Made by a program: the position numbers and the translations under genes. Source: Escherichia phage EI-SP-GF. Taken from it: DNA of 64,000 bases. The stretch lies in sequence record OR992645.1; one strand, written 5' to 3'. Below, piece after piece: positions 25,264 to 64,000 of this stretch. The stretch's first letter is position 1, and each line of letters begins with the position of its first letter. The notes beneath the pieces were generated by a model. That model ran no database searches. It worked only from the letters and a program-made list of their open reading frames with translations, and had not been told where the DNA came from.

Positions 25264-25306
25264 TTTGTCAGTCTATCCTGTCACACAAATAACCTAGTGT
25301 CAACAC

Positions 25307-25335: not shown

Positions 25336-25363
25336 ATCGTTGAAATTAAAACGGGGGGTCACT

Positions 25364-25774: not shown

Positions 25775-25781
25775 GGAATGT

Positions 25782-42308: not shown

Positions 42309-42318
42309 GGAAGACTAG

Positions 42319-42792
42319 ATGGAAACTCAAATTTTAACTCCTTATGCTTATGACCCTAAAAAGGTCAAACTGTATCTGATGCAGCAGCGTGTCACTGGCT
42401 TCGCTGCTGACACCAAGATCGTTGTTTCAAGAAATGAAGACAACATCTACCCTCACGTTGGTGTGGATGGCGAAATGTCTGCGGCTCTGTCTCGTAACCA
42501 ATCTGGTGTTATGACTGTATCTTTGCAGAACACTTCTGTATGGAACGCCTACCTTTCCGACTGGCAGAAACAGGCATCAATTACTGGTCTGGTATTCTTC
42601 CCTGTTCTGCTGGAAGGTAGCCAGGGCCCTGGTATTGCCACAATCGGTTGGATCCAGAAACAGCCTGACCTGACTTATGGAACCGAAGTAGGTCAGCTGG
42701 ATTGGGATATCGGTATCCTGGATGCATGGCTCAACCGTGACAACATCACTGGTGCTCTCACTGGCCTCGCAGGTCTTGCAGGTATTATCTAA
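42319..42792 (+). CDS. putative tail tube protein
   Basis: 157 aa between sheath-like gene and chaperones; followed by strong terminator. Confidence 0.4.
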   Translation: METQILTPYAYDPKKVKLYLMQQRVTGFAADTKIVVSRNEDNIYPHVGVDGEMSAALSRNQSGVMTVSLQNTSVWNAYLSDWQKQASITGLVFFPVLLEGSQGPGIATIGWIQKQPDLTYGTEVGQLDWDIGILDAWLNRDNITGALTGLAGLAGII

Positions 42793-42810
42793 GAGCACAC
42801 TTCAGCATAA

Positions 42811-42841
42811 GCCTCACCTTCTGGTGGGGCTTTTTGCTTTT
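42811..42841 (+). terminator. intrinsic terminator
   Basis: 8-bp stem GCCTCACC/GGTGGGGC, loop TTCT, then TTTTTGCTTTT. Confidence 0.7.
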
Positions 42842-42882
42842 ATGGTTCTGACACACGTTCTTGAATTGCTTGAAAGGTTAAA

Positions 42883-42911
42883 TTGACAATGCACCATAAT
42901 CATGGTAAAAT
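42883..42911 (+). promoter_or_regulatory. sigma70-like promoter (TTGACA-N17-TAAAAT)
   Basis: Consensus -35 at 42883-42888, -10 at 42906-42911, TGGTAAAAT extended -10. Confidence 0.55.
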
Positions 42912-42954
42912 ACACAAATATGGTGCACAACATGACTAATAAGGATGCTATAAA

Positions 42955-43428
42955 ATGGCTATAAACTTTAGACCTACAACAGAGATTGACTTAGCAGGGC
43001 ACAACTTCGTGATCACCCACTGGGGGCCGATGAAGGCAATGAAAAATATGCCTAAGATTGGCAAGATTGTGGCTGTCCCGTTAGGTGCTATCGGTGGATC
43101 TATTATCTCAGGTGGTCAGAATATGGCTGAGGTTCTTCCTACTGCTCTGGCCTACCTGTTCCAGGAGCTTGATGACAACTCTATTGAAGAGTTGTTTAAA
43201 ATCTTGTTCGAAGATATTACTGTAGACGGTGTGGATAGGCTTAATCCAGATGTTGTGTTTGCAGGGCATCTGCTGGAGATGATTAAACTGGCAGGTAAGG
43301 TTCTGGAGGTTAACTACGGCTGTTTTTTCACACAAGACGGTTTAGGAAGCCTTCTGGAGATGTTACAGCAGATGGGTATGATTCAGCAGGTGAACAATCT
43401 GGATCAGACTCCGGAAGAGCAGGAATAA
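42955..43428 (+). CDS. tail assembly chaperone
   Basis: 157-aa acidic protein immediately upstream of tape measure gene. Confidence 0.5.
   Translation: MAINFRPTTEIDLAGHNFVITHWGPMKAMKNMPKIGKIVAVPLGAIGGSIISGGQNMAEVLPTALAYLFQELDDNSIEELFKILFEDITVDGVDRLNPDVVFAGHLLEMIKLAGKVLEVNYGCFFTQDGLGSLLEMLQQMGMIQQVNNLDQTPEEQE
43323..43329 (+). other. candidate -1 ribosomal frameshift slippery heptamer T_TTT_TTC
   Basis: X_XXY_YYZ heptamer in frame of chaperone ORF; -1 frame is open from here to stop at 43688. Confidence 0.4.
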
Positions 43429-43439
43429 GCAAAGTTGTT

Positions 43440-43688
43440 GTGAGAGCCAGTGAGTGGGCAGCTAAGAACAGCTCACTTAACTGGTTCGACTTTCTTTGGT
43501 GTAGGGTGCTCAAGAACTTTAAAGGGGAAAATTTTGAATCGCTTAATCTTGCAGATATGGCGTATTTCCTCAAGCTGTGTGAGTATCTTGATATCGAAGA
43601 ATTCCTAGATACCGTCCAAAACAGGGAAATGGAGCGGGAGCAGAAGGCTGCCGCAGCTGCTGCGAAAGCTAAGCGCAGGAGAGGATAA
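43440..43688 (+). CDS. tail assembly chaperone frameshift extension
   Basis: ORF in -1 frame relative to 42955-43428, contiguous open frame back to slippery site. Confidence 0.4.
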   Translation: MRASEWAAKNSSLNWFDFLWCRVLKNFKGENFESLNLADMAYFLKLCEYLDIEEFLDTVQNREMEREQKAAAAAAKAKRRRG

Positions 43689-43742
43689 TCTAAGGGCCGG
43701 ATTCCTTTTCTGGGATCTGGCCCTTTTTATTATGAGGAAAAC

Positions 43743-46082
43743 ATGGCTACAAATAAGATAGTTGCCACAACAGTCAACAAGATTGGCTTTGAGATAGAGA
43801 ACTCCTCCTACAAAAAAGCTGTAGAGAAAATTCGCAGTATCGGGAAGGAGTTCAGGAAACTGGGCGAGGATTTTAACTCAGCCAACCCTATGAGCAGATG
43901 GCAGGCAGTGGCTGTTAAAACTCAGCAGACAATGCAACGTGTTGCCAGACAGCAATCCCAAGCAAATGCTAAACTGCACAGGGAGAGCGTTGCTCAGGCC
44001 AAGAAAGAGGCTGCAGTAAAGGCTGCAATAGAGCGCAGGGAGAATGCAAGACGTAAGCAAGCTGTAGGCAATATTACCGCCAAAAACCCAGAGATGGCTA
44101 GGATGCGTAAGTTCTACCAGCAGCAAGCTAAAGAGGCCAAAAAAGCTGCCAAATCTGCACCAGTATCCTATGGTGGTTATAAGGCACCTAAGGCAAGAGT
44201 TCTTGCTAACGCCAAGTCTTTCAGATATATCCCAGGCAACCCTAACATGGGTGGGGTGGCTTCAGATCCTAATCTTGTGAAAGCCCAGACTGCTGCCATG
44301 AACCGTTATCACAGACAGTTAAGAAGGGACAGCAAAGCTGGGATGGATAATAGGCTTATGGCAGATCGTGAGGCAAGGAGAACCCACCTCTACAACTCTG
44401 CGATAAGACTTTCTGCCAAATATGGTGCCGGATTCCGTGGTAGTCTGTCTGGATATTCGGAGTTGGAGTCCAGATTTGCTCGCGGGGAAATGAGTAAGTC
44501 AACCTTTAACGCCCACCTGTCTGCGTTGCAGTCTGGGTTTAAAAGTGCCACCAGCCAAACTCTGACCCTCGGTGATGCTATGAGGGATTTGCGTAGATCT
44601 GTAATCAACGCTACAGCTGCGTATACCGCTTTTTCTGGATTTGCTGCAGTTAACAGATCCGGTCATATGATGGAGGGGGCAAGTGCTGCTCTTACTGCTG
44701 TTACTGGAGATCCAAACAAAGCCAACAGTGAAGTTGCGTTTGTCCAGCAGGAGGCTATGCGTCTTGGTTTTGACCTCAAGTCTGGTCTTCAGGGTTATTC
44801 TCAGATGGCGGTGAACGCCAAAAATCAGATGACAAACCAAGAGGTGCATGAGCTATTCTCTGCATACTCGCAGTATGCTGCTGCTTACGGTGCCGATGAG
44901 GTAAAATACCAGCGCGGTATTATGGCAATCCAGCAAATGCTCGGTAAAGGGCAAGTAATGTCCGAAGAACTGAAGCAACAACTTGCTGAAGCATTACCTG
45001 GTGCATACGAACCTTTTATCAAAGCTACCCAAGAGGCTTTTGGTCTTGCTGAGCTCTCCATGGATCAGTTCATGGATATGATGAAAAAAGGTGAAGTTAA
45101 AACAGCCAAGATCATGAAGTATGTGGCTAAGTACATGAATGAGGCATCTGCAGCTGGTTATGAAAGAATGCAGAAGTCTAACGTACTGGCAGAAAACAGA
45201 CTGAAAACCTTTATTGAACTGTCCCGTCAGAAACTGTTCACACGTTGGGCAGATGAGCTGACAGAGTTCTACTACACCTTAATCCGCACAGGTGAGACCC
45301 TGCAATTTGTGTGGGATGCCGCTGGTGATTTTGTTAGCGGGTTTGTGAGAGGTTTGAACTGGGTTGTTGGTGAACTAAACAACACTATAGTTAAGATCCG
45401 TTTGTTTTTCCTTGAATGGGGAATTAAATGGGGTATCATAACTGCTAAGACGAAGGAATATTCCGAAGAGATACATGACACCTTTAGCATGGCTAAATGG
45501 GCAGGGTATGCTGCTGCAATCATGCTGGTAGTGAACGCCCTTACCAAAGGGTTTGTTATGGCATCCATGCTTGTAAAAACATTTAAGTTCCTCAGCAACC
45601 TGAGAGGTGCAGCTGGAGCTGCAGGTGCTGGTGCAGTAACCGCAGACGGCTCTGGAGGAGGAGCAGCCGGAAAAGGTGGTGGAGGCATTAAGACGCCTGG
45701 CGGTAAAGTTGGCATTCTTGGCAAACTAGGTATCATTGGCACAATACTGAGTGCCGGAGAACTATTTAATGACCGTTTCAACCCGCTGAGTGAAAGAAAT
45801 CAACAGCTGGATACCATCAGCGATATGATTCGTAAAGACATCATATCTGGAGGTAACGGGTTTGTTGATCCTCTAAGCACCTTGCCGGGAGGTACTCTTC
45901 CGTTACCAGGTGGTCCTGGTTTTGCTTCTCAATTAAGAACCATGGAAATGCTACCTTTAGAGATCAGTGATGGTAAAATCACGATTTCAATAGATGAGGG
46001 TGAGTTTAGCAAAATATTTGATGCAAAACTTGAGTGGGAGAACAGTAAAGATATCAACTTTATGTCCACAGACCTTTGGTAA
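43743..46082 (+). CDS. tail tape measure protein
   Basis: 779 aa, Ala/Gln/Lys-rich helical sequence with Gly-rich segment, downstream of chaperones. Confidence 0.8.
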   Translation: MATNKIVATTVNKIGFEIENSSYKKAVEKIRSIGKEFRKLGEDFNSANPMSRWQAVAVKTQQTMQRVARQQSQANAKLHRESVAQAKKEAAVKAAIERRENARRKQAVGNITAKNPEMARMRKFYQQQAKEAKKAAKSAPVSYGGYKAPKARVLANAKSFRYIPGNPNMGGVASDPNLVKAQTAAMNRYHRQLRRDSKAGMDNRLMADREARRTHLYNSAIRLSAKYGAGFRGSLSGYSELESRFARGEMSKSTFNAHLSALQSGFKSATSQTLTLGDAMRDLRRSVINATAAYTAFSGFAAVNRSGHMMEGASAALTAVTGDPNKANSEVAFVQQEAMRLGFDLKSGLQGYSQMAVNAKNQMTNQEVHELFSAYSQYAAAYGADEVKYQRGIMAIQQMLGKGQVMSEELKQQLAEALPGAYEPFIKATQEAFGLAELSMDQFMDMMKKGEVKTAKIMKYVAKYMNEASAAGYERMQKSNVLAENRLKTFIELSRQKLFTRWADELTEFYYTLIRTGETLQFVWDAAGDFVSGFVRGLNWVVGELNNTIVKIRLFFLEWGIKWGIITAKTKEYSEEIHDTFSMAKWAGYAAAIMLVVNALTKGFVMASMLVKTFKFLSNLRGAAGAAGAGAVTADGSGGGAAGKGGGGIKTPGGKVGILGKLGIIGTILSAGELFNDRFNPLSERNQQLDTISDMIRKDIISGGNGFVDPLSTLPGGTLPLPGGPGFASQLRTMEMLPLEISDGKITISIDEGEFSKIFDAKLEWENSKDINFMSTDLW

Positions 46083-46093
46083 TTAAACTATGT

Positions 46094-46119
46094 GGGGGCT
46101 TCTGGCCCCCTTTATTTTA
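46094..46119 (+). terminator. intrinsic terminator
   Basis: GGGGGC/GCCCCC stem, loop TTCTG, then TTTATTTTAT. Confidence 0.6.
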
Positions 46120-46125
46120 TCAGTG

Positions 46126-46154
46126 TTGTAAAAACGGCTATTTTATGATACAAT
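46126..46154 (+). promoter_or_regulatory. sigma70-like promoter (TTGTAA-N17-TACAAT)
   Basis: Hexamers at 46126-46131 and 46149-46154; implies start near 46161 so gene start taken as ATG 46188. Confidence 0.4.
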
Positions 46155-46187
46155 ATCTAAATGGTATCGGAGTGTCCTGGAGAGGTT

Positions 46188-47072
46188 ATGCCAAGTAATA
46201 TAGTTGATGAAAAAGACCTGTACAAGCCTCAAGAGGTTAAATCTCCAAAGGCTGAAAAGGCAGAGCAGCAAACTGAAAGTGATGTAAAGTATACTATGTT
46301 TGTCAGCGGTCTTAACTACGGCGGTCGCAATATAGAGATGAAGGGTAAAAACTTCACTAACGACCTTGCCATTATCTTCGATCAGGTTGAGAATTATTCT
46401 TTTAAACAAACGGTCGATAAGTCAGATTTTGCAGTAGAAGATAAGTCTACCCTGTCAGACCATGCGGTGGTTAAGGATGGGGTATTTTCTTTCACTGGTC
46501 GGGTAAATACATCTCCTCATATAATTTATGAGCAAAACTACATTGATAGAAATACTGACTCCAAAAACCCTGCAGCGTCTATGCGACCTGGTGCGGCATT
46601 AGAAGCTTTGACAGAGATCATTAATAAGCGACAGTTGGTTTCTTTAGTTACCGAGGAGAGACTCCTTGAAAACTACATTATAACCAGTCTTTCTGCCAAC
46701 AAGTCTGTTGGTGAAGGTGCTGCAATGGTGTTTGATGTGGAACTTACAGAATTCCGCACATTCTACTTGAACAAGGTTGTTAATGCAACTGTATACAGCA
46801 ATCCTAAGAAGGTCGGTAAGACTCAACAAAAAGGTGCTGTCAACGATTGCAAGAATGGTAGTAACGTAGGTAACAAGAGAGACACAGGGGCATTTGCAGA
46901 CACCGCGTCCACAAATGCTGCAGAAGAGTGGCAGCCATACAAATCCATGATGTGGACAGATGAAAACGGTGTTACCCAATCAGCTGCAGATTGGTACTAT
47001 CAGGAATATGGAAGACCTTCCACCATAGTCCCATCTGAGCAGGGGAACTACAACAAAGTTAACGGAAAATAA
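46188..47072 (+). CDS. hypothetical tail/baseplate protein
   Basis: ATG 46188 with GGAGAGG RBS; first gene after tape measure. Confidence 0.45.
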   Translation: MPSNIVDEKDLYKPQEVKSPKAEKAEQQTESDVKYTMFVSGLNYGGRNIEMKGKNFTNDLAIIFDQVENYSFKQTVDKSDFAVEDKSTLSDHAVVKDGVFSFTGRVNTSPHIIYEQNYIDRNTDSKNPAASMRPGAALEALTEIINKRQLVSLVTEERLLENYIITSLSANKSVGEGAAMVFDVELTEFRTFYLNKVVNATVYSNPKKVGKTQQKGAVNDCKNGSNVGNKRDTGAFADTASTNAAEEWQPYKSMMWTDENGVTQSAADWYYQEYGRPSTIVPSEQGNYNKVNGK

Positions 47073-47084
47073 GGGGAGCGTGTA

Positions 47085-47465
47085 ATGGAGCTTAAAGATT
47101 GGTGCATAATCACCTTTGTGTGGGACATTGACGGCTTTCCTGATCAGACCATGCGTGTGGTTTTAGATAATGAAACCTATGAAATGCGTATGCAATGGAA
47201 CGAGAGGGATGAGTCCTGGTGGTTATCTCTTGGTCCAGTAGGCGACAGTCCTTTAGTAACCAGAAAAGTAACAGCTTGTCAAGACATTTTAGACGGACTG
47301 CATTACAGAGACGATTTACCGAAGGGTAGGCTGATGGCCCTGTCGTTTAAAGACGATCAATATTGGGGCAGGGTTGGAAGATACAACCTTGGGGCCAGAT
47401 CTGAGCTACAACTTGTATACGGCACCCCAGTTGATCTTTACAAGGAACAGCAAGGGTTAGCATAA
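47085..47465 (+). CDS. hypothetical tail/baseplate protein (126 aa)
   Basis: ORF track; AAGGGGAG RBS. Confidence 0.4.
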   Translation: MELKDWCIITFVWDIDGFPDQTMRVVLDNETYEMRMQWNERDESWWLSLGPVGDSPLVTRKVTACQDILDGLHYRDDLPKGRLMALSFKDDQYWGRVGRYNLGARSELQLVYGTPVDLYKEQQGLA

Positions 47466-48469
47466 TGGCAGAGTATAGACGTAGAACATGGCGATTATTG
47501 TTTGGTCGCCCTGTAGAACATGGCGGAAAATCAAAAACCAATATCCCAAAATCTGTTGAAAAGAAAGGAGAAAGTGATTCTGGCGTTTATGAGATTAGCT
47601 CAGACACAGGTGCTGCCAATATAGAGTTCGACATACAAAAGGATAACACCAAAGAGCCAAACAAAGGCTATGTGATAGTTTACAACCTGTCTGACGATAC
47701 GGTTAACTATCTGGACATGCACCAGGCTGATGCTCTTGCGGTGATGTTTGAGGCTGGCTATGATAATGAGAACCAGTTGATATTCTCCGGAACTGTAGAG
47801 TTTGTTGAAGACAGGTGGGAAGGTCCGACTAGGAAAACTAAGTTCATCTTTGGAGATGGCACTGAGAACATCATTAAGTGCCAAAGCACCAGATCTTATC
47901 AGAAAGGTACACCTCTGGACTCTGTGCTTAATGACCTCCTGAAGGATATGAACTTACCAAAAGGTAGGGTTGTTGGTTTTGGAAACCAAACTTTGCAATA
48001 CTCCATGGCTTTCTCGGGGAATACTGCAGAGAACCTCCGCAGATTTGCAAGACTGACCAACTCAACATTTAGCGTTCAGGATGGGGCTTTATATTGGACC
48101 AAGGTTGGAAAAAGGTTCAAGGACTCTGTGTTTGAAATTAGTGCAGAGTCTGGGATGCACGGATCGCCCACCCCTAAAAACCCAGAGCCTGCGAGAAAAC
48201 GGAAAGCTAAAGCTGCTGCAAAAGGCGGTTCAACATCTAAAAAGAAAAAGAAAAACCCGAAAGAGGACGTTGGTCTTACCGTGACCACATGCCTTAACGG
48301 GGCTATCCTCCCAGAGTCAACCATCTATCTTAAGAGCAGACAATATACAGGCTTCTACAAGGTGATCACAGTGCACCACAAAGGCACCATCGAAGGAGGT
48401 GATTACATTACAGAGCTTGGACTTGGGGAAGCTGTTGGTGGGATTGTTGACAAAACTGAGGAGGTATAA
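47465..48469 (+). CDS. hypothetical baseplate-module protein with Lys-rich insert
   Basis: 334 aa; TAATG overlap with upstream gene; KRKAKAAAKGGSTSKKKKK segment. Confidence 0.4.
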   Translation: MAEYRRRTWRLLFGRPVEHGGKSKTNIPKSVEKKGESDSGVYEISSDTGAANIEFDIQKDNTKEPNKGYVIVYNLSDDTVNYLDMHQADALAVMFEAGYDNENQLIFSGTVEFVEDRWEGPTRKTKFIFGDGTENIIKCQSTRSYQKGTPLDSVLNDLLKDMNLPKGRVVGFGNQTLQYSMAFSGNTAENLRRFARLTNSTFSVQDGALYWTKVGKRFKDSVFEISAESGMHGSPTPKNPEPARKRKAKAAAKGGSTSKKKKKNPKEDVGLTVTTCLNGAILPESTIYLKSRQYTGFYKVITVHHKGTIEGGDYITELGLGEAVGGIVDKTEEV

Positions 48470-49146
48470 TGGCAATAAACAGGAAAGATGCTGCTGTAAG
48501 ATCCTTTATAGAAAAAATAATGAGGGACTACCACACCAGTATTAGAGCCAGAGTTGTCAGTGTAGATTACAGTATCCCCTCTGCAGCCGTGCAGCCAATA
48601 GCCGAAACCATGTTTGACGATGGGGATGTAGAAAGGTACCCTCTTATCTATGATGTTCCAATCCAGGTGATGTCTGCAAACGGTGGGAAGGCAAGGTTAA
48701 CGCTTCCTATTAAAGCTGGTGATGTTGTAGGGCTGCAATTTTCAGAGAGAAATGAAAACAATAACGATGACCAGCAAACCCACGGCCTGTTTCCAGGATG
48801 GGCTATCACCTCTGTTCATTCAGACTCGAATGCTTTGCAGATCGATCCTGATAATGTAGAGTTATGGAATGATAGGGTTTATTTTAAGCTAACACCTTCT
48901 GGTGATTTTGAGCTTCAAACACCTGGTGGGACATTACGGTGCGACAGTAGCGGGGAGTTTTCTTTCACCAACGGGGCTGCCAATTTACGAGCTGCTGTGG
49001 ATGGAAATATCAGAATGAATGGTGCCACAATAGACCCATCAGGTAGAATTATAACGGCTGCTGGTGTGGATTTGGACTCATTCTATGCAGAATATAAAGG
49101 TCATACCCACTCTTGCCCTGATGGCGAGACAAGTGGACCGCACTAA
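48469..49146 (+). CDS. putative baseplate spike/central protein
   Basis: 225 aa; position in baseplate cluster; weak resemblance to gpV-type N-terminal domain. Confidence 0.3.
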   Translation: MAINRKDAAVRSFIEKIMRDYHTSIRARVVSVDYSIPSAAVQPIAETMFDDGDVERYPLIYDVPIQVMSANGGKARLTLPIKAGDVVGLQFSERNENNNDDQQTHGLFPGWAITSVHSDSNALQIDPDNVELWNDRVYFKLTPSGDFELQTPGGTLRCDSSGEFSFTNGAANLRAAVDGNIRMNGATIDPSGRIITAAGVDLDSFYAEYKGHTHSCPDGETSGPH

Positions 49147-49158
49147 TAGAGGGCTTGA

Positions 49159-49875
49159 ATGGCTACGCTTTATAGTGATATATTGATGGACCCACAGACA
49201 GGTGATTTGGCGATAGACAAAGGTCTTGAGTTGATAGATTCAAACCAAGTAAGTCTGCGCCAGCGCCTGTGGATGAGGTTTAATACATGGAAGGGGAGCT
49301 GGTACTTTGATGAGTTGTTTGGCTTCCCTTATATGGACTTTCTCAGTAAGAAGGTCATGAAGACTGTTCTTGATAACAAGATTATGGAAGTGGCAAGACA
49401 AGAGCCAGATGTGCTAAACATCATAAACTTCCAGTCTACTATGGATCGAAGATCGAGAACATACCAAGCGTTCTTTGAGGTTGTTACCAAGGAGAACGAG
49501 ATTGTAAGGCTGGCTTTCGTAGGTCTTGATCAGTTTACCTACCCACAGCCTGATGACGGGGCAACCTCTCTTTGTGATGATGAAGGTTGGATTAAGTGGG
49601 CTAATAAACTGTACTACCTGATCAACTTCAGATTGCCTAGAACTGGAGATGCTACGTGGTGGAACCAGTATGCTGGTCCTGAGATGGAAAACCCGATTCC
49701 TGTAGGTTCTCTGTTGACTCAGAATAAAGATCTGTTGATGACTGATGCAGAACAAACCATTAACCGCAATACCTGGACGCTTGCTCCAGATGAGCGCGAA
49801 TATTCTGGTGTTATTGCTACCTCTAATGATGAGGCTATTGCCAACCAGTCTGGTCGTGCTATCGATGTTAACTAA
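49159..49875 (+). CDS. putative baseplate wedge protein (gp25/GpW-like N-terminal domain)
   Basis: LELIDSNQVSLRQRLWMRFNTWKGSWYFDELFGFPY resembles the gp25/GpW family signature. Confidence 0.4.
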   Translation: MATLYSDILMDPQTGDLAIDKGLELIDSNQVSLRQRLWMRFNTWKGSWYFDELFGFPYMDFLSKKVMKTVLDNKIMEVARQEPDVLNIINFQSTMDRRSRTYQAFFEVVTKENEIVRLAFVGLDQFTYPQPDDGATSLCDDEGWIKWANKLYYLINFRLPRTGDATWWNQYAGPEMENPIPVGSLLTQNKDLLMTDAEQTINRNTWTLAPDEREYSGVIATSNDEAIANQSGRAIDVN

Positions 49876-49884
49876 GGAGAAATC

Positions 49885-50553
49885 ATGGCTGTAGCTTATC
49901 CTACAATACCAATCCCAGATCTTGAAGATGCAGAAACAGTCTTGAGTGATGACTTCTTGGTTGTCAACCAGACTGACGGGACAAGAAAGGCTAAGATTGA
50001 TGATGTTGTCAATGATCTTAGCATTACTAAAATAGTTTATTTCACAGAGGGCGGTTATCTTAAGAGCAAGAAGGATTTTGCTTATGATCCGGAAACTAAG
50101 CGCTACTACACATGGAATGGAGATTATCCTAAAATAATCCTCCCAGATTCTACTGTAGAGGGTGCCGGAGGTGTGTCTGCAAAAGCATGGTCTGTTTTTG
50201 GAGAGCTTGCTGCAACTTCTTCAGGTAGGATAGTTGATTACGGCTCTATTGGTGGTCAACTTGACATGGATCTTGACGTTGCAGACACGTTTAAAGTTCG
50301 GCTCACTTCAAACACTACAATCTCTTTTGAAAATCAAACAGAAGGGCTCGACGGAGTGGCAAGAACTATAACTGTATGCATAACGCAGACCTCGGGTGGT
50401 AACAAAGTTTATTGGCCTGACAATGTTAAATGGGCCTACGGGAGAGATCCTATCCTAACATTTACAGCTGGTGCAACAGACATTTTCAAGTTGGAAACAT
50501 ATGATAATGGACTAACTTGGTACGGGGCACTGATCATCGCAGGAGCTATCTAA
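49885..50553 (+). CDS. tail fibre-related protein sharing N-terminal domain with 53188 fibre
   Basis: N-terminus ETVLSDDFLVVNQTDGTRKAKIDDVV parallels DDYLVVQQPDLTRRVKIGDVV of the 1268-aa fibre. Confidence 0.4.
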   Translation: MAVAYPTIPIPDLEDAETVLSDDFLVVNQTDGTRKAKIDDVVNDLSITKIVYFTEGGYLKSKKDFAYDPETKRYYTWNGDYPKIILPDSTVEGAGGVSAKAWSVFGELAATSSGRIVDYGSIGGQLDMDLDVADTFKVRLTSNTTISFENQTEGLDGVARTITVCITQTSGGNKVYWPDNVKWAYGRDPILTFTAGATDIFKLETYDNGLTWYGALIIAGAI

Positions 50554-50554
50554 G

Positions 50555-53152: not shown

Positions 53153-53187
53153 CATAGGGGGCTGTTTGCCCCCTTTCAGGAGAAAGA

Positions 53188-56994: not shown

Positions 56995-57002
56995 CTGTTT
57001 TG

Positions 57003-57030
57003 CCCTCGCTTCGGCGGGGGCTTTTTGTTT
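57003..57030 (+). terminator. intrinsic terminator
   Basis: Stem CCCTCGC/GCGGGGG with UUCG tetraloop, then CTTTTTGTTT. Confidence 0.7.
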
Positions 57031-57033
57031 GTA

Positions 57034-57062
57034 TTGCGTATTAACTCAAAATCTGGTAAAAT
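57034..57062 (+). promoter_or_regulatory. sigma70-like promoter (TTGCGT-N17-TAAAAT)
   Basis: Hexamers at 57034-57039 and 57057-57062; TGGTAAAAT extended -10. Confidence 0.5.
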
Positions 57063-57093
57063 AACTATCATGATTGTTTAACCTGGAGGCACA

Positions 57094-57684
57094 ATGTTTT
57101 TATGGGAAAGGCCTAGATACCTTCCAGATATTAGATTGGAGCTGCTGGCAGATATTGTTACGTTTAAAAGTCCGTTTACAGGTAAAACGCAAAAAGTGAC
57201 CTATGCCACACCTAACTGGAAAGGCACTTTGACGGTTTCCAATATCAGCGAGTCACAGTTGCTAGAGCTTAAGAGCTTTGTTGATCAGGTGTATAAAGAC
57301 GGGAACATTTTTCTTATTAAAACGTACGGTCACTCAGTAACAGCTAATGAGCCAATCGCCCTTGGGCCTACCGGTAACGACGATTTTTTGAAGACGGTCG
57401 GATGGGAGCCAAACAGAGACATAGCCAGAGCTGGGGATAAAATATCTGTTAACGATGAATTGAAAGTGGTAACAGCTCCAGTGCGCAGCGATGGTGTTGG
57501 GTCTGCTGTTATAAGCATATCTCCAAGACTTAGAAAACCTATTGCCGCAGGGGACACTATGAAGATAATAACTCAATCCCCAAAGGGTAGGTTTCATATC
57601 AGAGATATTTATAAAATTAAGCAAAAAGTCGATGCTATGCAAAAAGGTGATAATATAGTTATCAACTTCTTTGAGGATTTCTAA
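57094..57684 (+). CDS. hypothetical tail tip protein (196 aa)
   Basis: First gene of cluster ending with J-like protein; GGAGG RBS. Confidence 0.35.
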   Translation: MFLWERPRYLPDIRLELLADIVTFKSPFTGKTQKVTYATPNWKGTLTVSNISESQLLELKSFVDQVYKDGNIFLIKTYGHSVTANEPIALGPTGNDDFLKTVGWEPNRDIARAGDKISVNDELKVVTAPVRSDGVGSAVISISPRLRKPIAAGDTMKIITQSPKGRFHIRDIYKIKQKVDAMQKGDNIVINFFEDF

Positions 57685-57685
57685 G

Positions 57686-58237
57686 ATGATTAGAGCGCCA
57701 TTAGATAATTTATTTCTTGAAAAGCTGGAGCTTGATAGTGTTGAGATCTTAATTGCTGCAAAGCTAGAGCTACCAACAGGGACTGTCAGGGTGTGCTCAG
57801 GAACTGGTGTTGTGGTGATTGAGGGGCAACATTTTATAGGGATAGGTGGATCAGCAACATTGACTGCTGTGTCTGAGAAAGATGCTACCAACTTCGGATC
57901 TGTGGTAGCAACATTGAACGGATTTGATCCCAAGTATGTAGGTGATCTGCTGAAGACAGAGTATTCGGGTTGTCGTGCCACGTTGTATATCACAGCTATG
58001 GAGAATGGTTTACCTGTTACAACCAATGGCTTGTTTGACGGCCTTATAACAGACATGGCTATTCAGACAGGGGAGAATAGTGCTTTGTCCATATCCATAT
58101 CTTCCATCTTCAACAGCTGGTTAAGAGGTTTTCCTTATCGATACACAGAGGAGAGCCATAGCTCAAGAAACGATAATGACAGATTTTTTAAATATGTGGA
58201 TCAGGTGGCAAGCCGCCCGATCATTTGGGAGGTTTAA
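57686..58237 (+). CDS. hypothetical tail tip protein (183 aa)
   Basis: Start moved to ATG 57686 just after upstream stop. Confidence 0.35.
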   Translation: MIRAPLDNLFLEKLELDSVEILIAAKLELPTGTVRVCSGTGVVVIEGQHFIGIGGSATLTAVSEKDATNFGSVVATLNGFDPKYVGDLLKTEYSGCRATLYITAMENGLPVTTNGLFDGLITDMAIQTGENSALSISISSIFNSWLRGFPYRYTEESHSSRNDNDRFFKYVDQVASRPIIWEV

Positions 58238-58662
58238 TGAGCACACACCCTCGTTTAGTAGACTGGCAAGAAAGATTGTGGAAAGTGTTTGACGAAGAAG
58301 CTACCGTCCAGTTTGAATGGGGATTCCACGATTGTTGCACTTTTGCGGCTAAATGTGTTGATGCCCAATATGGAACAGATTTTCTTTCTAACTTTGAAGG
58401 AACGTATAAAACAGAGTTGGAAAGCAAGAGATGGTGCATGCTCCGTTTCAAAACCACCCACCTGCCTACTATTTTTGATCTCTTTTTGACTCGACTGGAT
58501 ACTCCTAAACAGGTTCAGCGTGGCGATATTGTTATTTTCGAAGGTCTGAACGGGCTCACCGCTGGTGTGTTCTGGAACAACCAGATTTGGGCGAAAGGTG
58601 ATAAGGGGATCTTTATGTTCGACATGAAAGATTCTATCGTTGTTGATGTCTGGAGGTATTAA
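58237..58662 (+). CDS. hypothetical tail tip protein with Cys/His motif (141 aa)
   Basis: Start moved to ATG 58237 (GGGAGG RBS, TAATG overlap); WGFHDCCTFAAKC could be a peptidase-like site. Confidence 0.35.
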   Translation: MSTHPRLVDWQERLWKVFDEEATVQFEWGFHDCCTFAAKCVDAQYGTDFLSNFEGTYKTELESKRWCMLRFKTTHLPTIFDLFLTRLDTPKQVQRGDIVIFEGLNGLTAGVFWNNQIWAKGDKGIFMFDMKDSIVVDVWRY

Positions 58663-61600
58663 TGCCAATTGCAATGATTGATAACATCGTTGCTTCTGCA
58701 AGATCTTCGAGCTATGACTGGAACGCATCCAAGGCAGCTCTGGCTGACAGCCTGAACACTGTTACCACCAGAACCCTGGATAAGATTTTCGAAGGTAACA
58801 AATCTTACAGAAGTCAGCAAGATAGACAAAAGCTTCTCAGATCTTCTGCTGCACCTTGCTCTGTAGTGTATGGGAAGACACGCACATCTGGATTGCTTGC
58901 GTTTTTGGAGCAGGACAGGGACAGAACCCTTCATTGTGCTATTGTTCTTGCCAATCATCCCTTGGAAGGTATAGAAGATATACTTATCGACGGTAATCCT
59001 ATTTCCTCGTATGGGGATTTGGTATCGTGGGAGTTACATAACGACAGGAAAACCTCTGATCCTTTCATGGGTACACACTGCCCTTCGTGGTCACCAGACA
59101 TGATAGGTAGAGGGATCAGTTGGCTACGTGCCAGCTTTAAGTTTGACCCTAACAAGTTTCCTTTTGGGTTGCCAAACGTTACACTCGTCAAGGTTGGTAA
59201 AAAATGTTATGATCCTCGTATCAGTAAAGAGGTGTATACCAATAACGCTGCCTTGGTGATTCTGGACTACCTAAGAACGTACCTTAAATGTCCTGACGAA
59301 ACCATCAACTGGGAGTCCTTCAAGGAAGCTGCCAACATATGCGATGAGGCTGTAAAAAACGCGGACGGAACCAGTGAGCGCCGTTACACCATTAATGGCG
59401 AGTTCGACATGGATGAAGCACCAGCAAGCATTATGGCAGAGATGCTGAAAGCTTGTGGTGCAGACCTTAGCTATGTAGCTGGCAAATATGGTCTGCTGGT
59501 AGGTGCATACTATGGCCCGGCAACAATGACACTTAGCGAGAACTGTGTTTGCGGTGAGGTTAAGATCTATCCTGAAGCCTCCTTCGACAAAAGATCCAAC
59601 ACAATAACTGGCAGATTCACTAGTCCGGCCAAAGGGTATTCTGAAACAGATTTTCCATCAGTGTTTGTCCCAGAGTGGGTAGAGAAGGATGGAGAAAGAA
59701 AGATAATCGATATAGATTATCGCTTTGTTACCAGTCCTTATCAAGCTCAGCGTGTTTCTGCAATCTTCTTAAGACGTGCCAGAGCTGGTAGGATTATTGA
59801 AGTAACCTGCAATATGCGGGGTTTTAAATTTAAGCCTGGGCGTTACGTTACGATGGACCTCCCAAGTATTGGTATAGTGGGCCAAGAAATGAGGGTTCTT
59901 GAATGGGAGTTCACCAAAAAGGGCGGTGTCAAGGTAAAACTCCGTCAAGATGCTAAAGAGTGGAATGATGCCACAGGGCAACTTCCGGATTCTGGAGATG
60001 TGGATATTCCGATATCCCCGTCCGGCGTAGCTCAACCGCAAAACTTCAGATACTCTGTTCTTCAAGCTGGGGAAGTAACTCATGGTGTTTTGGCTTGGGA
60101 CAACGTTGGAACTTATGCTCAAAATATTGTGCAGGTAAGAAAGAACGGAGAGATTATTTGGACAGCACAGACAGTTGAGCAGTTTGTCCGCGTAGAAGGA
60201 TTGACCAAAGGGTCATACACAGCAACCGTGGTTGCAACATCTTATAAAGGTGGTGTATCTCCAGAAGCTTACTGCGAGTTTAACATTCAAGCACCTGAAG
60301 CTCCTGTTTCTGTAGAAGTTAAGCAGGGATACTTTGCTATCACCTTGATTCCGCACAGCAGGGACTTAGCAAGTGTAAGCACCCAGTATGATTTTTGGAC
60401 ATCTGGTATGACAAGGTTGCCGGACACAAGTGATGCAACCGTTACTTCAAAAGCCACCCGTATGGGTGTTGGTTCAACTTGGACATCTGAAGGTCTGCAG
60501 AACGATAAGATTTATTATTGGTATATTCGAACCACAAACGCTTTTGGTAGTTCTCAGTTTGTAGAATGCGCTGCACGCTGCTACACCTCTATTGAAGATT
60601 TGATGCCTCAGATAGATGCTGAATTTAAAAAGACAGAAACTTATAAAGAGTTGATGAGCACTTTAGATTCCTCTATCGAGGAGGTTGAAAATCGTGTCAC
60701 AGAGCTTAACAAGTACATGGACGGAAGGGTAGATGAGGCATTCCAACAACTTGGAGATAGGATAGGTGCGGTAGTTGCAGAGACAACTCAGAAGTTTGAG
60801 GATGTCAATGGTAATATCACAGCTCTGGATAGGAAACTTGTTGCTGCACAGAACAAGTTCACCAACGATCTGAACACTGAAAGTGGAAGACTGGCATCCC
60901 TGATCGAGACAACCAATAAAGCAACCACTGATCTTCTGAACAAAAAGACAGAGGCTTTAGACGAGAAATTGGTTGCAGCCAAAGGGGAGTTGGTAGAACA
61001 AATAAGTGGTGTGGAGAGCGGATACCTTGCCGGAGATAAAACTCTAGATGGCAAGATCAATACCCAGAGAACGGAACTTGATGCAAGCATCTTAAGCACC
61101 AACCAGGCGACAGTGGATCTTCTCAACAGGACATCTGAAACTTTGGATCAAAAGATCAGTCAGACAAACGCGACGGTATCTAAGAACTATACCACCCTTG
61201 ATGGTAAGATAACTACCGCAAAAACTGATCTCAATACCTTGATTGCCAATACCAACAAGGCCACCACAGATTTGTTGAATCAGAAAACCTCTGCACTGTC
61301 GGAGCAGATAACTTCTGCACGTGGAGAAATTTCTACCAACAAACAGGCGATTAAGGATTTGGATGGTAAGCTGACCTCCACAAAAACAGCACTGGACGCT
61401 ACAATCTCCGATACCAACAAAGCAACCGTGGATCTTATTAACGGCACAGCGTCAGCTATTCGTCAAGAACTTGCTGTTGCTAAGCAGGAGATCATTGATG
61501 ATGTCGGTGATGTGTCAGAGCTTAGAGCTGCAGTAGCTACAACATCTAAGGCTGTGACAGACTTAGAGGGCAAAGTAACTGCTCAATGGGGCACAAAAAT

Positions 61601-62501
61601 ACAGGTAGACTCCGCAGGGAATAAGTATGTGGCAGGTATCCAATTGGGCATGGAAGGCTCTGGAGGCCAAGTTCAATCATACTTCATGGTTAGTGCAAAC
61701 AACTTTGCGGTATACAACCCCGGAAATGGAACAGCAACCCTTGCTTTCGCAATCAAGAACAACCAAGCATTCTTGAAAGATGCTTTTATAGAGAACGGGA
61801 CGATCTCTTCTGCCAAGATTGCACAAGAAATTTCGTCTAACAACTACGATGGCAACGGGTACCATAAATACGGTTGGTATATTAACAAGAACGGACACGC
61901 CCAGTTTATGGATGTGTGGGTGAAAGGTAACATCAACGCTAGTGCAGGTAACTTCACAGGGGCAGTTAACGCTACCAGTGGCACTTTCCGTGGGGATGTT
62001 TATGCCAATAATGGTAGCTTTAGAGGCACCATAGATGCAACAGGAGGTACATTCCGTGGACGTGTAGAAGCTTCCGTTATCCGTGCTAACCAGTTCGAAG
62101 GTGCAATCGTTGCACATAGGACCTATGGTGACTGTCCTCCGGTATATAACTCGCAGCAGAGGGTTTGCCGTTGGAGGTGGAGATATGTGGACAACGTTTC
62201 AGGGCAAGGTAAGAACGTAACATTCTTCTTTAAACTAAACGGAACCTTGTCTGGCTCCCAGCTCAACGTTTGGATAGCCGGACATCAAATCCTTGCAGGT
62301 AAGAAGTACGGAAACGACAACAACGGCATGTGTGCGGTAGGGATAACTGGTCTCGGTGAACAAACCATAGACATTATCGTCGAGATATACACACCATGGT
62401 CAACGTCAAGCGTGACAGGAGTTACAATATCTTGTCCAACCGTAATAGTTAGTCGTTCAAACTCTAGCTTCCAGGGACCTTGGAACGAGTCTCATGACTA
62501 A
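58662..62501 (+). CDS. lambda gpJ-like tail tip / host specificity protein
   Basis: Segments APEAPVSVEVKQGYFAITLIPH, YYWYIRTTNAFGSSQFVE and KYVAGIQLGMEG...FMVSANNFAV parallel lambda J; internal 30-aa coiled-coil repeats. Confidence 0.7.
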   Translation: MPIAMIDNIVASARSSSYDWNASKAALADSLNTVTTRTLDKIFEGNKSYRSQQDRQKLLRSSAAPCSVVYGKTRTSGLLAFLEQDRDRTLHCAIVLANHPLEGIEDILIDGNPISSYGDLVSWELHNDRKTSDPFMGTHCPSWSPDMIGRGISWLRASFKFDPNKFPFGLPNVTLVKVGKKCYDPRISKEVYTNNAALVILDYLRTYLKCPDETINWESFKEAANICDEAVKNADGTSERRYTINGEFDMDEAPASIMAEMLKACGADLSYVAGKYGLLVGAYYGPATMTLSENCVCGEVKIYPEASFDKRSNTITGRFTSPAKGYSETDFPSVFVPEWVEKDGERKIIDIDYRFVTSPYQAQRVSAIFLRRARAGRIIEVTCNMRGFKFKPGRYVTMDLPSIGIVGQEMRVLEWEFTKKGGVKVKLRQDAKEWNDATGQLPDSGDVDIPISPSGVAQPQNFRYSVLQAGEVTHGVLAWDNVGTYAQNIVQVRKNGEIIWTAQTVEQFVRVEGLTKGSYTATVVATSYKGGVSPEAYCEFNIQAPEAPVSVEVKQGYFAITLIPHSRDLASVSTQYDFWTSGMTRLPDTSDATVTSKATRMGVGSTWTSEGLQNDKIYYWYIRTTNAFGSSQFVECAARCYTSIEDLMPQIDAEFKKTETYKELMSTLDSSIEEVENRVTELNKYMDGRVDEAFQQLGDRIGAVVAETTQKFEDVNGNITALDRKLVAAQNKFTNDLNTESGRLASLIETTNKATTDLLNKKTEALDEKLVAAKGELVEQISGVESGYLAGDKTLDGKINTQRTELDASILSTNQATVDLLNRTSETLDQKISQTNATVSKNYTTLDGKITTAKTDLNTLIANTNKATTDLLNQKTSALSEQITSARGEISTNKQAIKDLDGKLTSTKTALDATISDTNKATVDLINGTASAIRQELAVAKQEIIDDVGDVSELRAAVATTSKAVTDLEGKVTAQWGTKIQVDSAGNKYVAGIQLGMEGSGGQVQSYFMVSANNFAVYNPGNGTATLAFAIKNNQAFLKDAFIENGTISSAKIAQEISSNNYDGNGYHKYGWYINKNGHAQFMDVWVKGNINASAGNFTGAVNATSGTFRGDVYANNGSFRGTIDATGGTFRGRVEASVIRANQFEGAIVAHRTYGDCPPVYNSQQRVCRWRWRYVDNVSGQGKNVTFFFKLNGTLSGSQLNVWIAGHQILAGKKYGNDNNGMCAVGITGLGEQTIDIIVEIYTPWSTSSVTGVTISCPTVIVSRSNSSFQGPWNESHD

Positions 62502-62509
62502 CAGTAAAG

Positions 62510-62534
62510 CCCCGCTTCGGCGGGGTTTATTTTT
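62510..62534 (+). terminator. intrinsic terminator
   Basis: Stem CCCCGC/GCGGGG with UUCG tetraloop, then TTTATTTTT. Confidence 0.7.
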
Positions 62535-62543
62535 ATGCTCAGA

Positions 62544-62572
62544 TTGACTATTGTTACAAAATTTGGTAAAAT
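62544..62572 (+). promoter_or_regulatory. sigma70-like promoter (TTGACT-N17-TAAAAT)
   Basis: Hexamers at 62544-62549 and 62567-62572; TGGTAAAAT extended -10. Confidence 0.5.
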
Positions 62573-62605
62573 ACCTTGTAGAGATTTTCATACCGGAGGA
62601 GTGAC

Positions 62606-64000
62606 GTGGCTAAGTATGGATTGACAGAGGCTGGTTTCGTTATACCAACCCTAAATGACCTAATCGTTGAAACTAAGCAAAGCCTGATCCGTGCTTTTGG
62701 CGAAAACTTCAACGTACAGAGTAACTCCGTTGCAGATAAGCTGACCACTATCTTCAACGAGCGAGAGTATCAACTTATTCTTATGGCAGCATCTGTATAC
62801 GCATCGCAGACGCTGTATGGGGCAGAAGGTATTTACCTGGATGAGCTTCTTGGAAGACAGGGTATTTACCGAAGAGGCCGTTCTAAATCATCAGGTACCT
62901 GCCAGTTGACAATCAACACAACTGTGCCGTACAATATGATTTATGATTCCAAAACTTATACGCTGGACAGTGGCAACTTTGTTCTTAGCAACGATGTGCA
63001 GGTGGCGGGAAATCTTATTGCTCACAGAATAAACGCTCCAGACCTAAGAATTGGGAAATACAACTTTCAAATTACCAACCAGACAGACGGAAGTATCAAA
63101 ACAAAAAGTCTGGTTTTAACAGATAAGGCTCTGGACTCTTCTGATTTGCCAAGCTTTTACGGCGAGATTAAGCAATTCATTGTCGATAATACAACCCTGC
63201 TGAATGATGATTTAATTCAGATAGATATGTTGACAGGGACGTTGTGGATAGGGTACAATTCGAATCTTGATCAAGTTGGACTTAATAGCAGGGTAGATTT
63301 CAGAGTATCCCCGATTGTAGGGGAAAGAACTATCACCCTAGATGTTATCGCTAACGAGGCTGGTGAGCTGTCAAGAGAGGCAGAAACCGTGACAACAATG
63401 TCACCTACTCCCAGTGGATTTATCAAGCTTACCAACCGAGAAAGATTCAATGAGGGTAGGGATGTTGAGAAAGACTCTGAGTATCGCTTAAGAGCTTCCA
63501 GCACTAAACAGCTGACATCTAAAGCTACCCGTCCTGCAATCCTTAGCGCTGTAAGCGAGGTGAAAGGTGTTGAGAAAGTAAGAGTGTTCTCCAACAACAC
63601 CGATAAAACGGATGCGAAAGGTATACCACCTTATAAGTTTCAAGTGGTGGTGTTTGGTGGTGCAACAGAGGATATCTGTCAGGCGCTGTATCAAACCATA
63701 GCTTGCACAAACAGAACTTATGGGAATATCTTCTACGATATTACCACATCAGACGGTCAGACTGAAAGGATTTATTACTCCAAGGCAAATACCTACCGCC
63801 TAGATGTAAGAATTACCTACTCAGGTGCTGCGCTTTCCACAACCGAAAAAGATGCCATTGTAGAGGCTCTTTTACAGGTTGTTAACGGACTGGATGTTGC
63901 AGATACGTTGTACAATATCCAATTGGTTGGTGCTGCATCAGCTGCTGTGTCAATAGGCAGATTTAACAGACTTGTGATTCAAGTAAAACCTGTGGGAGCC
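62606..64000 (+). CDS. putative baseplate/tail protein (partial; continues beyond window end)
   Basis: GTG start with GGAGGAG RBS; open frame to window end (465 codons); not in ORF track because incomplete. Confidence 0.45.
   Translation, partial: MAKYGLTEAGFVIPTLNDLIVETKQSLIRAFGENFNVQSNSVADKLTTIFNEREYQLILMAASVYASQTLYGAEGIYLDELLGRQGIYRRGRSKSSGTCQLTINTTVPYNMIYDSKTYTLDSGNFVLSNDVQVAGNLIAHRINAPDLRIGKYNFQITNQTDGSIKTKSLVLTDKALDSSDLPSFYGEIKQFIVDNTTLLNDDLIQIDMLTGTLWIGYNSNLDQVGLNSRVDFRVSPIVGERTITLDVIANEAGELSREAETVTTMSPTPSGFIKLTNRERFNEGRDVEKDSEYRLRASSTKQLTSKATRPAILSAVSEVKGVEKVRVFSNNTDKTDAKGIPPYKFQVVVFGGATEDICQALYQTIACTNRTYGNIFYDITTSDGQTERIYYSKANTYRLDVRITYSGAALSTTEKDAIVEALLQVVNGLDVADTLYNIQLVGAASAAVSIGRFNRLVIQVKPVGA

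Follow-up and report, generated by a model that had tools for sequence, protein, structure and literature searches.

Four co-oriented genes on the plus strand, at positions 57,094–62,501 of a 64,000-nucleotide stretch of the genome of Escherichia phage EI-SP-GF (sequence record OR992645.1; the whole stretch is called the window below), were analyzed by profile searches, structure prediction and genome comparison. With slightly better than even confidence, they are read here as a complete siphophage tail-tip cassette that has been redeployed in a contractile-tailed phage as an accessory, probably peripheral, adsorption organelle. The window is part of a Vequintavirus (rV5/FV3-like) genome: the region 57000–62600 matches more than 100 Vequintavirus GenBank records at 94–96% DNA identity over its full length. 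The orthologues gp40–gp37 of rV5 and FV3 and bas53_0027–0030 of phage JohannBauhin stand in the same position and, at 94–96% DNA identity, show no sequence difference to report.

The open reading frames (ORFs) of the cassette lie at 57094–57684, 57671/57686–58237, 58225/58237–58662 and 58662–62501, limits that were given exactly in an earlier reading of the window made from its letters alone (the sequence-only reading). Judging from ribosome-binding sites and TAATG junctions, translation of genes 2 and 3 probably begins at ATG 57686 (183 amino acids, aa) and ATG 58237 (141 aa), respectively, and the stop and start codons of genes 2–4 overlap as TAATG. The long fourth gene encodes a J-like central fibre and is preceded by genes for a distal tail protein (Dit), an HDI-type hub piece and an NlpC/P60-type protein. 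Coordinates of the genes, domains and signals are collected in Table 1.

The 1279-aa product of gene 4 matched lambda J in a phmmer search of PDB sequences (E=2e-27) over two segments, residues 497–684 against lambda J 666–850 and residues 958–1115 against lambda J 845–990 (8iyk_J). It was assigned to the Pfam families Ig_J, Ig_J_second and Phage_Tail_Tip and to PHROG 31, 'central tail fiber J' (E=9e-163), and a profile of residues 1–500 matched the PDB chains of T5 pb3 (E=1.6e-19), the T1 fibre (5e-18), lambda J 265–484 (1e-11) and the F-pyocin fibre. N-terminal hub domains followed by Ig/FNIII domains and then by a beta-helical tail-tip fibre, domain features of the gpJ family, are all present, and the parallel to lambda J drawn in the sequence-only reading is that of a genuine homologue. 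Between the two lambda-J-like stretches the protein carries a coiled-coil shaft of ~270 aa with four repeats of 51–62 aa, at residues 751, 813, 864 and 918 and marked by TN(K/Q)AT(T/V)DL(L/I)N.

The first 47 residues of J set the Vequintavirus proteins apart. In all eight siphophage homologues examined, J starts with a Gly/Ala-rich hydrophobic stretch that is replaced here by a charged segment; the maximum 19-aa Kyte-Doolittle value is 1.7–2.3 in the eight siphophage proteins and 0.31–0.37 in both Vequintavirus lineages (a second, divergent lineage is described below). The segment is 100% conserved in JohannBauhin and FV3. The window cassette therefore contains neither of the hydrophobic, membrane-active hub elements looked for, gpI helices or a hydrophobic J N-terminus.

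Variation in J within the genus was found in the shaft, which falls into three allele classes (at least 95% identity in 55 records, 60–80% in 15 and ~40% in 44); the hub is at least 95% conserved, and the C-terminal 160 aa are 91–100% identical in 116 Vequintavirus records. A hypervariable receptor-binding tip was considered and rejected on these figures. These results agree with the strong allelic variation of the J-like gene described in the BASEL report (PMC8594841), but map it to the shaft and not to the tip. The C-terminal tip domain (154 aa) had only 8 matches among 1.84 billion representatives, one of which is the C-terminus of a 1484-aa lambda-type J (FNIII-A_GpJ, Phage-tail_3, Ig_J) at 57% identity. 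Because it also ends a classical lambda-type J, the domain is taken as a central-fibre tip module that is shared across hub types. Host screens of rV5-like phages found the lipopolysaccharide (LPS) (outer) core and NGR/ECA glycans to be required (PMC8594841; PMC7229145; bioRxiv 10.64898/2026.04.02.716166), and since only LPS core and these glycans are named, no receptor can be assigned to J. The proposal that this protein is a determinant of host range accordingly stands as a candidate only, with a conserved tip, a variable shaft and host screens that point to glycans and LPS core.

The three small proteins required more sensitive comparisons. BLASTP and hhalign searches with the single proteins or with 9-sequence profiles against the individual lambda M, L and K proteins gave nothing significant, and single-sequence searches of the PDB returned noise only. 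A homologue search from a single sequence yielded 3 matches, and the search had to be seeded with aligned siphophage homologues. The gene 1 product (196 aa) matched PHROG 1302, 'distal tail protein' (E=2e-50). The top PDB matches of its nine-sequence family profile were the DT57C and T5 Dit proteins (E=0.003–0.06, residues 31–195 against 35–203), hhalign against T5-like pb9 gave E=2e-4, and the protein is 29–31% identical to the product of the first gene after the tape measure in Nonagvirus and Klebsiella siphophages. From these matches, which are of moderate strength, gene 1 is predicted to encode a Dit of the pb9 type, acting in the role of gpM.

The gene 2 product is predicted to be the gpL-like, HDI-fold piece of the hub. 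Its AlphaFold2 model (pLDDT 84.7) matched the N-terminus of T5 pb3 (E=2e-6), T1 tip chain J (8e-5), the gene transfer agent (GTA) chain 6tba_7A (4e-4) and lambda gpL (8iyk_L; E=7e-4, TMq 0.55) in Foldseek searches of the PDB, and also gpL-type chains in the tips of JBD30 and Chi; the sequence profile matched pb3 47–175 in the PDB at E=0.03 (hhalign, E=1e-4). Its equivalents would be lambda gpL, T5 pb3 residues 47–175 and RcGTA g13. The protein ends at residue 183 with Cys37 and Cys96 (numbered from ATG 57686) as its only cysteines, so that the four Cys ligands of the gpL 4Fe-4S domain are not found in it; the Cys cluster is also missing from the siphophage homologues. No Pfam match, Phage_tail_L included, was obtained for the product or for 100 family members; one member of the family is labelled 'DUF2163 domain-containing' by UniRef. 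The Vequintavirus protein is without the C-terminal 'WGSKKDAPGFTY' tail found in its siphophage homologues.

For gene 3, Pfam DUF6950 was matched end to end (E=3e-33). A PDB profile search for DUF6950 gave no matches; the AlphaFold2 model (pLDDT 94.2) matched MepS/Spr in the PDB (E=4e-5, TM ~0.6) and DUF6950 and NlpC/P60 phage proteins in BFVD. Asp32-Cys33 is invariant in 119 homologues, and the invariant or nearly invariant columns contain no His. On the evidence of the model, gene 3 has an NlpC/P60 (papain-like) fold with a putative catalytic Cys, as in the C-terminal half of gpK; the MPN/JAB domain of gpK has no counterpart in its 141 aa, all of which are DUF6950.

Since none of the three matches lambda M, L or K significantly, their link to lambda rests on fold and on T5 and GTA intermediates. 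The cassette and the lambda M-L-K-I-J genes have in common a ring protein, an HDI piece, an NlpC/P60-fold protein and a J with hub, Ig/FNIII and fibre parts; of these, only J shows a direct match in sequence. Lambda has the 109-aa gpM as its ring protein and the cassette a two-domain, pb9-type Dit, and relative to lambda the cassette has no gpI gene, 4Fe-4S domain or JAB domain, while its J has the ~270-aa coiled-coil insert and a C-terminal domain unrelated to the LamB-binding domain of lambda J. The M/L/K-like position that the sequence-only reading gave to the small genes thus holds at the level of folds and profiles (pb9-type Dit, HDI, NlpC/P60), and fails for sequence similarity and for the missing gpI, Fe-S and JAB parts. 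In T5, Dit corresponds to pb9 over its full length, the L-like protein to pb3 47–175 and the J hub to pb3 265–765 (~20% identity by tblastn against T5-like pb3); the T5 hub is one polypeptide with a separate fibre (pb9-pb3-pb4), whereas in the window the hub is divided into the L-like protein and J, with the fibre fused to it. The baseplate of the Rhodobacter GTA consists of g12 (Dit), g13 (hub), g14 (peptidase) and g15 (megatron), in an order and with sizes as in the cassette. The likeness compared here was that of g13, through the match of the L-like model to 6tba_7A; the GTA complex differs in being the axial tip of a non-contractile tail.

The same block of four genes, in the same order and with similar sizes, was found immediately after the tape-measure gene in eight siphophages (ChristophMerian, K21lambda1, three Vibrio phages, phiPSA1, Roseobacter CRP-822 and Paracoccus Pthi1). 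In tblastn searches with the J hub there were no matches between 60% and 95% identity; below 60% came Queuovirinae siphophages of E. coli at 57–58% (annotated in Nonagvirus as 'J-like tail tip protein'), then those of Serratia, Klebsiella, Vibrio, Pseudomonas and Roseobacter. A search for related loci with the J hub returned close relatives only. Against the Nonagvirus ChristophMerian (bas19_0016–0019), the products of genes 1–4 are 31, 37, 46 and 55% identical. The cassettes of Queuovirinae and of the Klebsiella, Vibrio, Pseudomonas and Roseobacter siphophages comprise the same four families in the same order, with small proteins of 196, 194 and 138 aa followed by J. They differ in lying directly after the tape measure, in forming a non-contractile tail tip, in the hydrophobic start of J and in the extra C-terminal tail of the L-like protein; J of ChristophMerian (879 aa) also has neither the window protein's long coiled coil nor its C-terminal tip domain.

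Identities between the window and ChristophMerian were then set against those between ChristophMerian and K21lambda1. The two values are 57% and 55% for the J hub, 47% and 39% for DUF6950, 37% and 47% for the L-like protein and 29% and 49% for Dit. On these pairwise values, Dit has diverged out of proportion and the L-like protein less so, and the J hub and DUF6950 do not. In siphophages, Dit faces the tube and the tape measure. Taken together, the changed J N-terminus, the lost L-like tail and the divergence of Dit are consistent with a new context for the complex.

By sequence comparison, the cassette is confined among myophages to Vequintavirus. Because it is widespread in siphophages and present in a single myophage genus, movement from siphophage to myophage would be the economical direction of transfer. 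A divergent Vequintavirus lineage, represented by assemblies only, also carries the cassette, with 83, 87, 61 and 74% identity for genes 1–4 and saturated synonymous sites. This lineage (GCA_002973135.1 JZQG01000004.1; Logan DRR842911, DRR842919 and SRR22580009) has the same gene order at 61–92% protein identity, is absent from the phage collection, and encodes a J that is 80 aa shorter in the coiled coil. A recent import or compositional anomaly was considered for the window cassette and rejected, its GC content (0.44–0.45) being the same as that of the surroundings.

The cassette is set in a genome with a full contractile tail. The product of 40932 (458 aa) is the sheath, matching the solved phiTE sheath at E=2e-144 and Phi92_gp130 at E=9e-48, and is 98% identical to FV3 gp053, which forms polysheaths by self-assembly (PMC6357053). 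The product of 42319 is the tube (Pfam KPP10_Orf10, PHROG 280), and that of 49159 is a sheath initiator of the gp25 class (solved phiTE protein, E=5e-61; Phi92_gp139, E=3e-16). Genes for the sheath, tube, sheath initiator, tube initiator, hub, spike and wedge are thus all present. The contractile-tail markers pointed out in the sequence-only reading (sheath-sized, tube-like and gp25-like products) are borne out by these profile matches; its counter-possibility, that 40932 encodes a siphovirus tube protein and 49159 is unrelated to gp25, was checked, and a plain lambda-like tail is ruled out because the one is a sheath and the other a sheath initiator.

Within this setting the cassette does not lie directly downstream of a tape measure in a non-contractile tail module. 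It is 11 kb from the tape-measure gene (43743–46082), between the S74 side-fibre gene and the wedge gene, and the nine genes in between are those of the myophage baseplate core and, after them, three for fibres. The interval from sheath initiator to wedge was compared in relatives. It is empty in phiTE, where the wedge gene directly follows the sheath initiator. A Seunavirus-like Salmonella phage has three genes for fibres or spikes there, a Klebsiella phage has genes of the depolymerase type, and the phi92-like PaulScherrer has five for fibres or spikes; no homologue of a cassette protein was found in the interval regions of these four phages. The gene numbering of Septuagintavirus W70 likewise places a sheath-initiator-class gene (phrog_4233, W70_115) beside the wedge gene (W70_114) (PMC11370258). 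Because its contents differ among relatives or are missing altogether, the interval 49875–62606 is taken as a variable cargo site for adsorption genes. As a wider observation, the site spans Vequintavirinae and phi92-like phages, in which it holds fibres, spikes or depolymerases or is empty. The flanking baseplate genes are 53–71% identical to those of the cassette-less relatives (53–60% for the 62606 wedge gene against those of phiTE, the Seunavirus-like phage and the Klebsiella phage). In Salmonella phage PQ002170.1 (142 kb) the sheath and baseplate genes are 60–71% identical to those of the window; its record is assigned to the siphophage family Demerecviridae, probably in error.

The sequence-only reading had suggested a mosaic tail tip, in which Dit, the L-like protein and J would occupy the tail axis, beneath or surrounding the hub and spike of the myophage, J would serve as a lambda-like central fibre, and opening by receptor would gate or trigger contraction. 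Such a tip would suit a J that keeps all of its central-fibre domains, including the hub domains that normally extend the tube, a cassette that is complete with Dit and HDI piece, and the low abundance of J in rV5 virions, as expected of three copies. The axis, however, is already taken up by conserved parts (tube initiator, plug, hub and spike) that are homologous to those of the solved phi92 and phiTE baseplates, which lack the cassette, and the baseplate genes flanking the cassette are 53–71% identical to those of cassette-less relatives. The cassette is unlinked from the tape-measure gene, the hydrophobic N-terminal segment of J is lost, and the accessible part of the Bas49/Bas54 cryo-EM report, which describes three fibres in the proximal baseplate region, mentions no central fibre (PMC12143355). 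With the complete contractile set of sheath, tube, tube initiator, hub, spike and sheath initiator in place, a mosaic tip is considered distinctly improbable. An accessory organelle is preferred over a replaced tip because the cassette is off the tape measure, in the fibre slot, and has lost the hydrophobic J segment.

All four cassette genes are under strong purifying selection. Ratios of nonsynonymous to synonymous substitution (dN/dS) were computed against JohannBauhin and FV3 instead of the divergent lineage because of the saturation of synonymous sites in the latter. They were 0–0.02 for Dit, ~0.01 for the L-like gene, 0.06–0.09 for DUF6950 and 0.03–0.04 for J, values similar to or lower than those of the neighbouring baseplate and fibre genes (0.01–0.13). 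At a cutoff of at least 95% identity, the J hub was found in 116 records and the sheath initiator in 118, and at least 115 genomes carry the four genes with every frame intact. These results bear on the possibility that the cassette is a decaying remnant of recombination with a siphophage or has a function outside the virion, such as a decoy or anti-defence module. That no receptor or phenotype has been linked to the cassette genes, and that no density is assigned to them in the accessible part of the cryo-EM report (PMC12143355), would fit such an origin. The four frames are nevertheless intact across those genomes and in a lineage with saturated synonymous divergence, dN/dS is 0.00–0.09, genes 2–4 overlap at TAATG, the promoter-like motif is shared with the wedge gene, and J peptides occur in virions; a relic or non-virion function is largely refuted and is given very little credence.

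The J orthologue of rV5, gp37, was detected in purified virions by 4 peptides covering 4.2% of the protein, one of them a high-scoring, fully tryptic peptide from the hub (PMC3606486). That gp37 is the sole cassette product detected there would also fit a simpler scheme, in which J alone is structural and attached through its new N-terminal 47 aa, and the Dit-like, L-like and DUF6950 proteins are scaffolds or chaperones not kept in the particle. Lambda gpK is needed for tail assembly and is not known to persist in the mature tail. In keeping with this, the lambda tip structure lists only gpM, gpL, gpJ and gpI (PMC11101478), and the 47-aa segment is both lineage-specific and 100% conserved. HDI and Dit are nevertheless stoichiometric in every solved siphophage tip, the J hub ring would be incomplete without HDI, and the Dit and L-like genes have the lowest dN/dS of the region (0–0.02). 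The rV5 mass spectrometry is, moreover, too shallow for absence to count, its list of 19 proteins including neither the hub nor the tube initiator. This scheme is regarded as unlikely.

In the preferred reading, an ancestor of Vequintavirus most likely acquired the cassette from an enterobacterial siphophage whose nearest living relatives are Queuovirinae such as Nonagvirus, and the cassette would have been inserted into the variable fibre slot between sheath initiator and wedge. The lambda tip comprises six gpM, three gpL (HDI plus 4Fe-4S), three gpJ and three gpI (PMC11101478), and this composition sets the architecture expected of the cassette complex. The gpL-like protein and the J hub domains would form a trimeric, pseudo-hexameric hub that docks on a Dit-like ring, the NlpC/P60-fold protein may act as an assembly helper or be retained as a minor component, and the shaft of J (Ig domains, variable coiled coil, beta-helix and tip domain) would protrude as a fibre. 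The complex would no longer nucleate a tube or form the DNA exit, because the phage is already equipped with a central tube initiator, hub and spike and because the hydrophobic segment of J is lost. It would be carried, probably at the periphery of the baseplate, as an extra organelle for adsorption or sensing. In lambda, hydrophobic helices of gpI are housed within the tip; on opening of the hub they are proposed to enter the outer membrane or form a channel (PMC11101478). Because this type of cassette has no gpI gene, the hydrophobic N-terminus of siphophage J is, by analogy, a plausible equivalent of the gpI helices, and its loss from the Vequintavirus protein would fit a complex that no longer conducts DNA. 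A further elaboration, that these tube-less siphophage tip complexes on the baseplate periphery reuse the receptor-driven hub-opening switch, by which siphophages release their DNA, as a sensor signalling to the baseplate and helping to trigger sheath contraction, is considered quite unlikely.

Several observations weigh against the accessory-organelle reading. Without a siphophage tube there is no evident docking site for the Dit ring, and Dit itself was assigned from moderate profile matches (E ~1e-3 to 1e-4). Mass spectrometry of rV5 (19 proteins) detected J and none of the Dit-like, L-like and DUF6950 proteins (gp38–40) (PMC3606486), nor were gp38–40 found in a search of the rV5 supplementary files; this absence is uninformative, because the list is also without the hub and the tube initiator. 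In the accessible part of the cryo-EM report on two Vequintavirus phages, density is described for only three fibres and none for the J-like class (PMC12143355). The published host screens of rV5-like phages report no outer-membrane protein receptor.

The bare observation of a J-like gp37 is already known. The COG4733 assignment of rV5 gp37 and its presence in the virion were noted in 2013 (PMC3606486), and the orthologues carry the RefSeq labels 'distal tail protein', 'tail protein', 'hypothetical' and 'central tail fiber J'. An N-terminal region 'common in central tail fibers' is noted in the RBPseg study (PMC12143355), and gp37 has been treated as one of many 'lateral tail fibres', with the gene-to-fibre assignment stated as unclear (PMC8594841). 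In the searchable literature the four genes were not found described as a single, complete tip cassette of siphophage type, nor were descriptions found of its restriction to one genus, its nearest relatives or the way in which its parts have been remodelled; both the cassette-level reading and this remodelling appear undescribed. The rV5-like phages are among the most often isolated and therapeutically used E. coli phages, with a many-fibred adsorption apparatus (PMC8594841; PMC12143355). If the four products form one tip complex, a concrete model becomes available for fitting unassigned baseplate density, with predicted partners and a stoichiometry of 6 Dit : 3 L-like : 3 J per complex. The cassette would then be a naturally occurring example of an entire tail-tip machine that passed from one tail type to another and lost its DNA-channel features, which bears on the modularity of phage host-recognition devices and on their engineering.

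Table 1. Genes, protein domains and candidate signals of the tail region, in window coordinates (genes of the contractile-tail core and fibre genes given by a single number are listed under the position that names them)
Feature	Position	Strand	Basis or remark
Contractile-tail core	40932..49875	+	Profile/PHROG matches; JohannBauhin and FV3 annotation
Sheath	40932	+	
Tube	42319	+	
Chaperone	42955	+	
Tape measure	43743-46082	+	
Tube initiator	46161	+	
Plug	47085	+	
Hub	47465	+	
Spike	48469	+	
Sheath initiator	49159	+	
Fibre gene	49885	+	Between sheath initiator and cassette
Fibre gene	50555	+	Between sheath initiator and cassette
Fibre gene	53188	+	Between sheath initiator and cassette
Terminator-like hairpin, upstream cassette boundary	57002..57021	+	8 pairs, 7 GC, then T-run; after the 1268-aa side-fibre gene
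Promoter-like motif AAAATCTGGTAAAATA (extended -10 type), ahead of cassette	57048..57063	+	Putative promoter function
Gene 1, predicted distal tail protein (Dit), T5 pb9-like, 196 aa	57094..57684	+	PHROG 1302, family profile, hhalign
Gene 2, predicted hub piece (HDI), 183 aa, without Fe-S domain	57686..58237	+	AlphaFold2 model, Foldseek, profile
Gene 3, DUF6950 protein, predicted NlpC/P60 fold, 141 aa	58237..58662	+	Pfam, AlphaFold2 model, Foldseek
Gene 4, J-like central fibre, 1279 aa	58662..62501	+	
J aa 1-47, hydrophilic segment at the N-terminus, found in the Vequintavirus lineages only	58662..58802	+	Hydropathy comparison
J aa 48-490, baseplate-hub domains, lambda J/T5 pb3 class	58803..60131	+	PDB profile; tblastn
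J aa 491-684, two Ig/FNIII-like domains, as lambda J 666-850	60132..60713	+	Pfam; phmmer to 8iyk_J
J aa 685-955, repeat-containing coiled-coil shaft, variable, absent from lambda J	60714..61526	+	Gap between lambda-J-like stretches
J aa 956-1125, beta-helical central-fibre segment (Phage_Tail_Tip), as lambda J 845-990	61527..62036	+	Pfam E=3e-38
J aa 1126-1279 and stop, Cys-containing C-terminal tip domain, putative receptor-binding end	62037..62501	+	
Terminator-like hairpin, downstream cassette boundary	62507..62528	+	After J
Baseplate wedge subunit gene	62606..64000, runs beyond window end	+	GTG start; PHROG 6 'baseplate wedge subunit'

The two hairpins that flank the cassette are GC-rich and have the core CGCTTCGGCGGGG in common; together with a third strong terminator-like hairpin at 46094–46110 they break the tail region up into units. 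Besides the site ahead of the cassette, the 16-mer pattern AAAATCTGGTAAAATA, with any base allowed at position 6, has just one more exact match, at 62558, ahead of the wedge gene. The 10-mer TGGTAAAATA occurs at exactly four sites, all on the plus strand: 57054 and 62564, in the intergenic gaps 57022–57093 and 62502–62605, and 39383 and 42903, also in gaps between ORFs. The longer AAAATyTGGTAAAATA precedes both the cassette and the wedge gene. The element is a candidate late promoter.

Two of the fibre proteins encoded beside the cassette, of 222 aa (49885–50553) and 1268 aa (53188–56994), share an N-terminal Tail_spike_N domain (TSP1/Gp66), with 36–39% identity between the two copies; at its C-terminal end the 1268-aa protein has a Peptidase_S74 intramolecular chaperone. 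This domain pattern suggests a branched fibre system next to the cassette. Among the records matching 57000–62600, 18 are named 'Campylobacter phage' (MG065655, MG065647 and 16 more, ~94% identical), with C. jejuni given as host in 16 of the 18 and Campylobacter in the other 2, a host label that looks doubtful. The GC skew of the window changes sign at ~25000–26000, which fits a switch in the direction of transcription between a minus-strand block and the plus-strand structural block.

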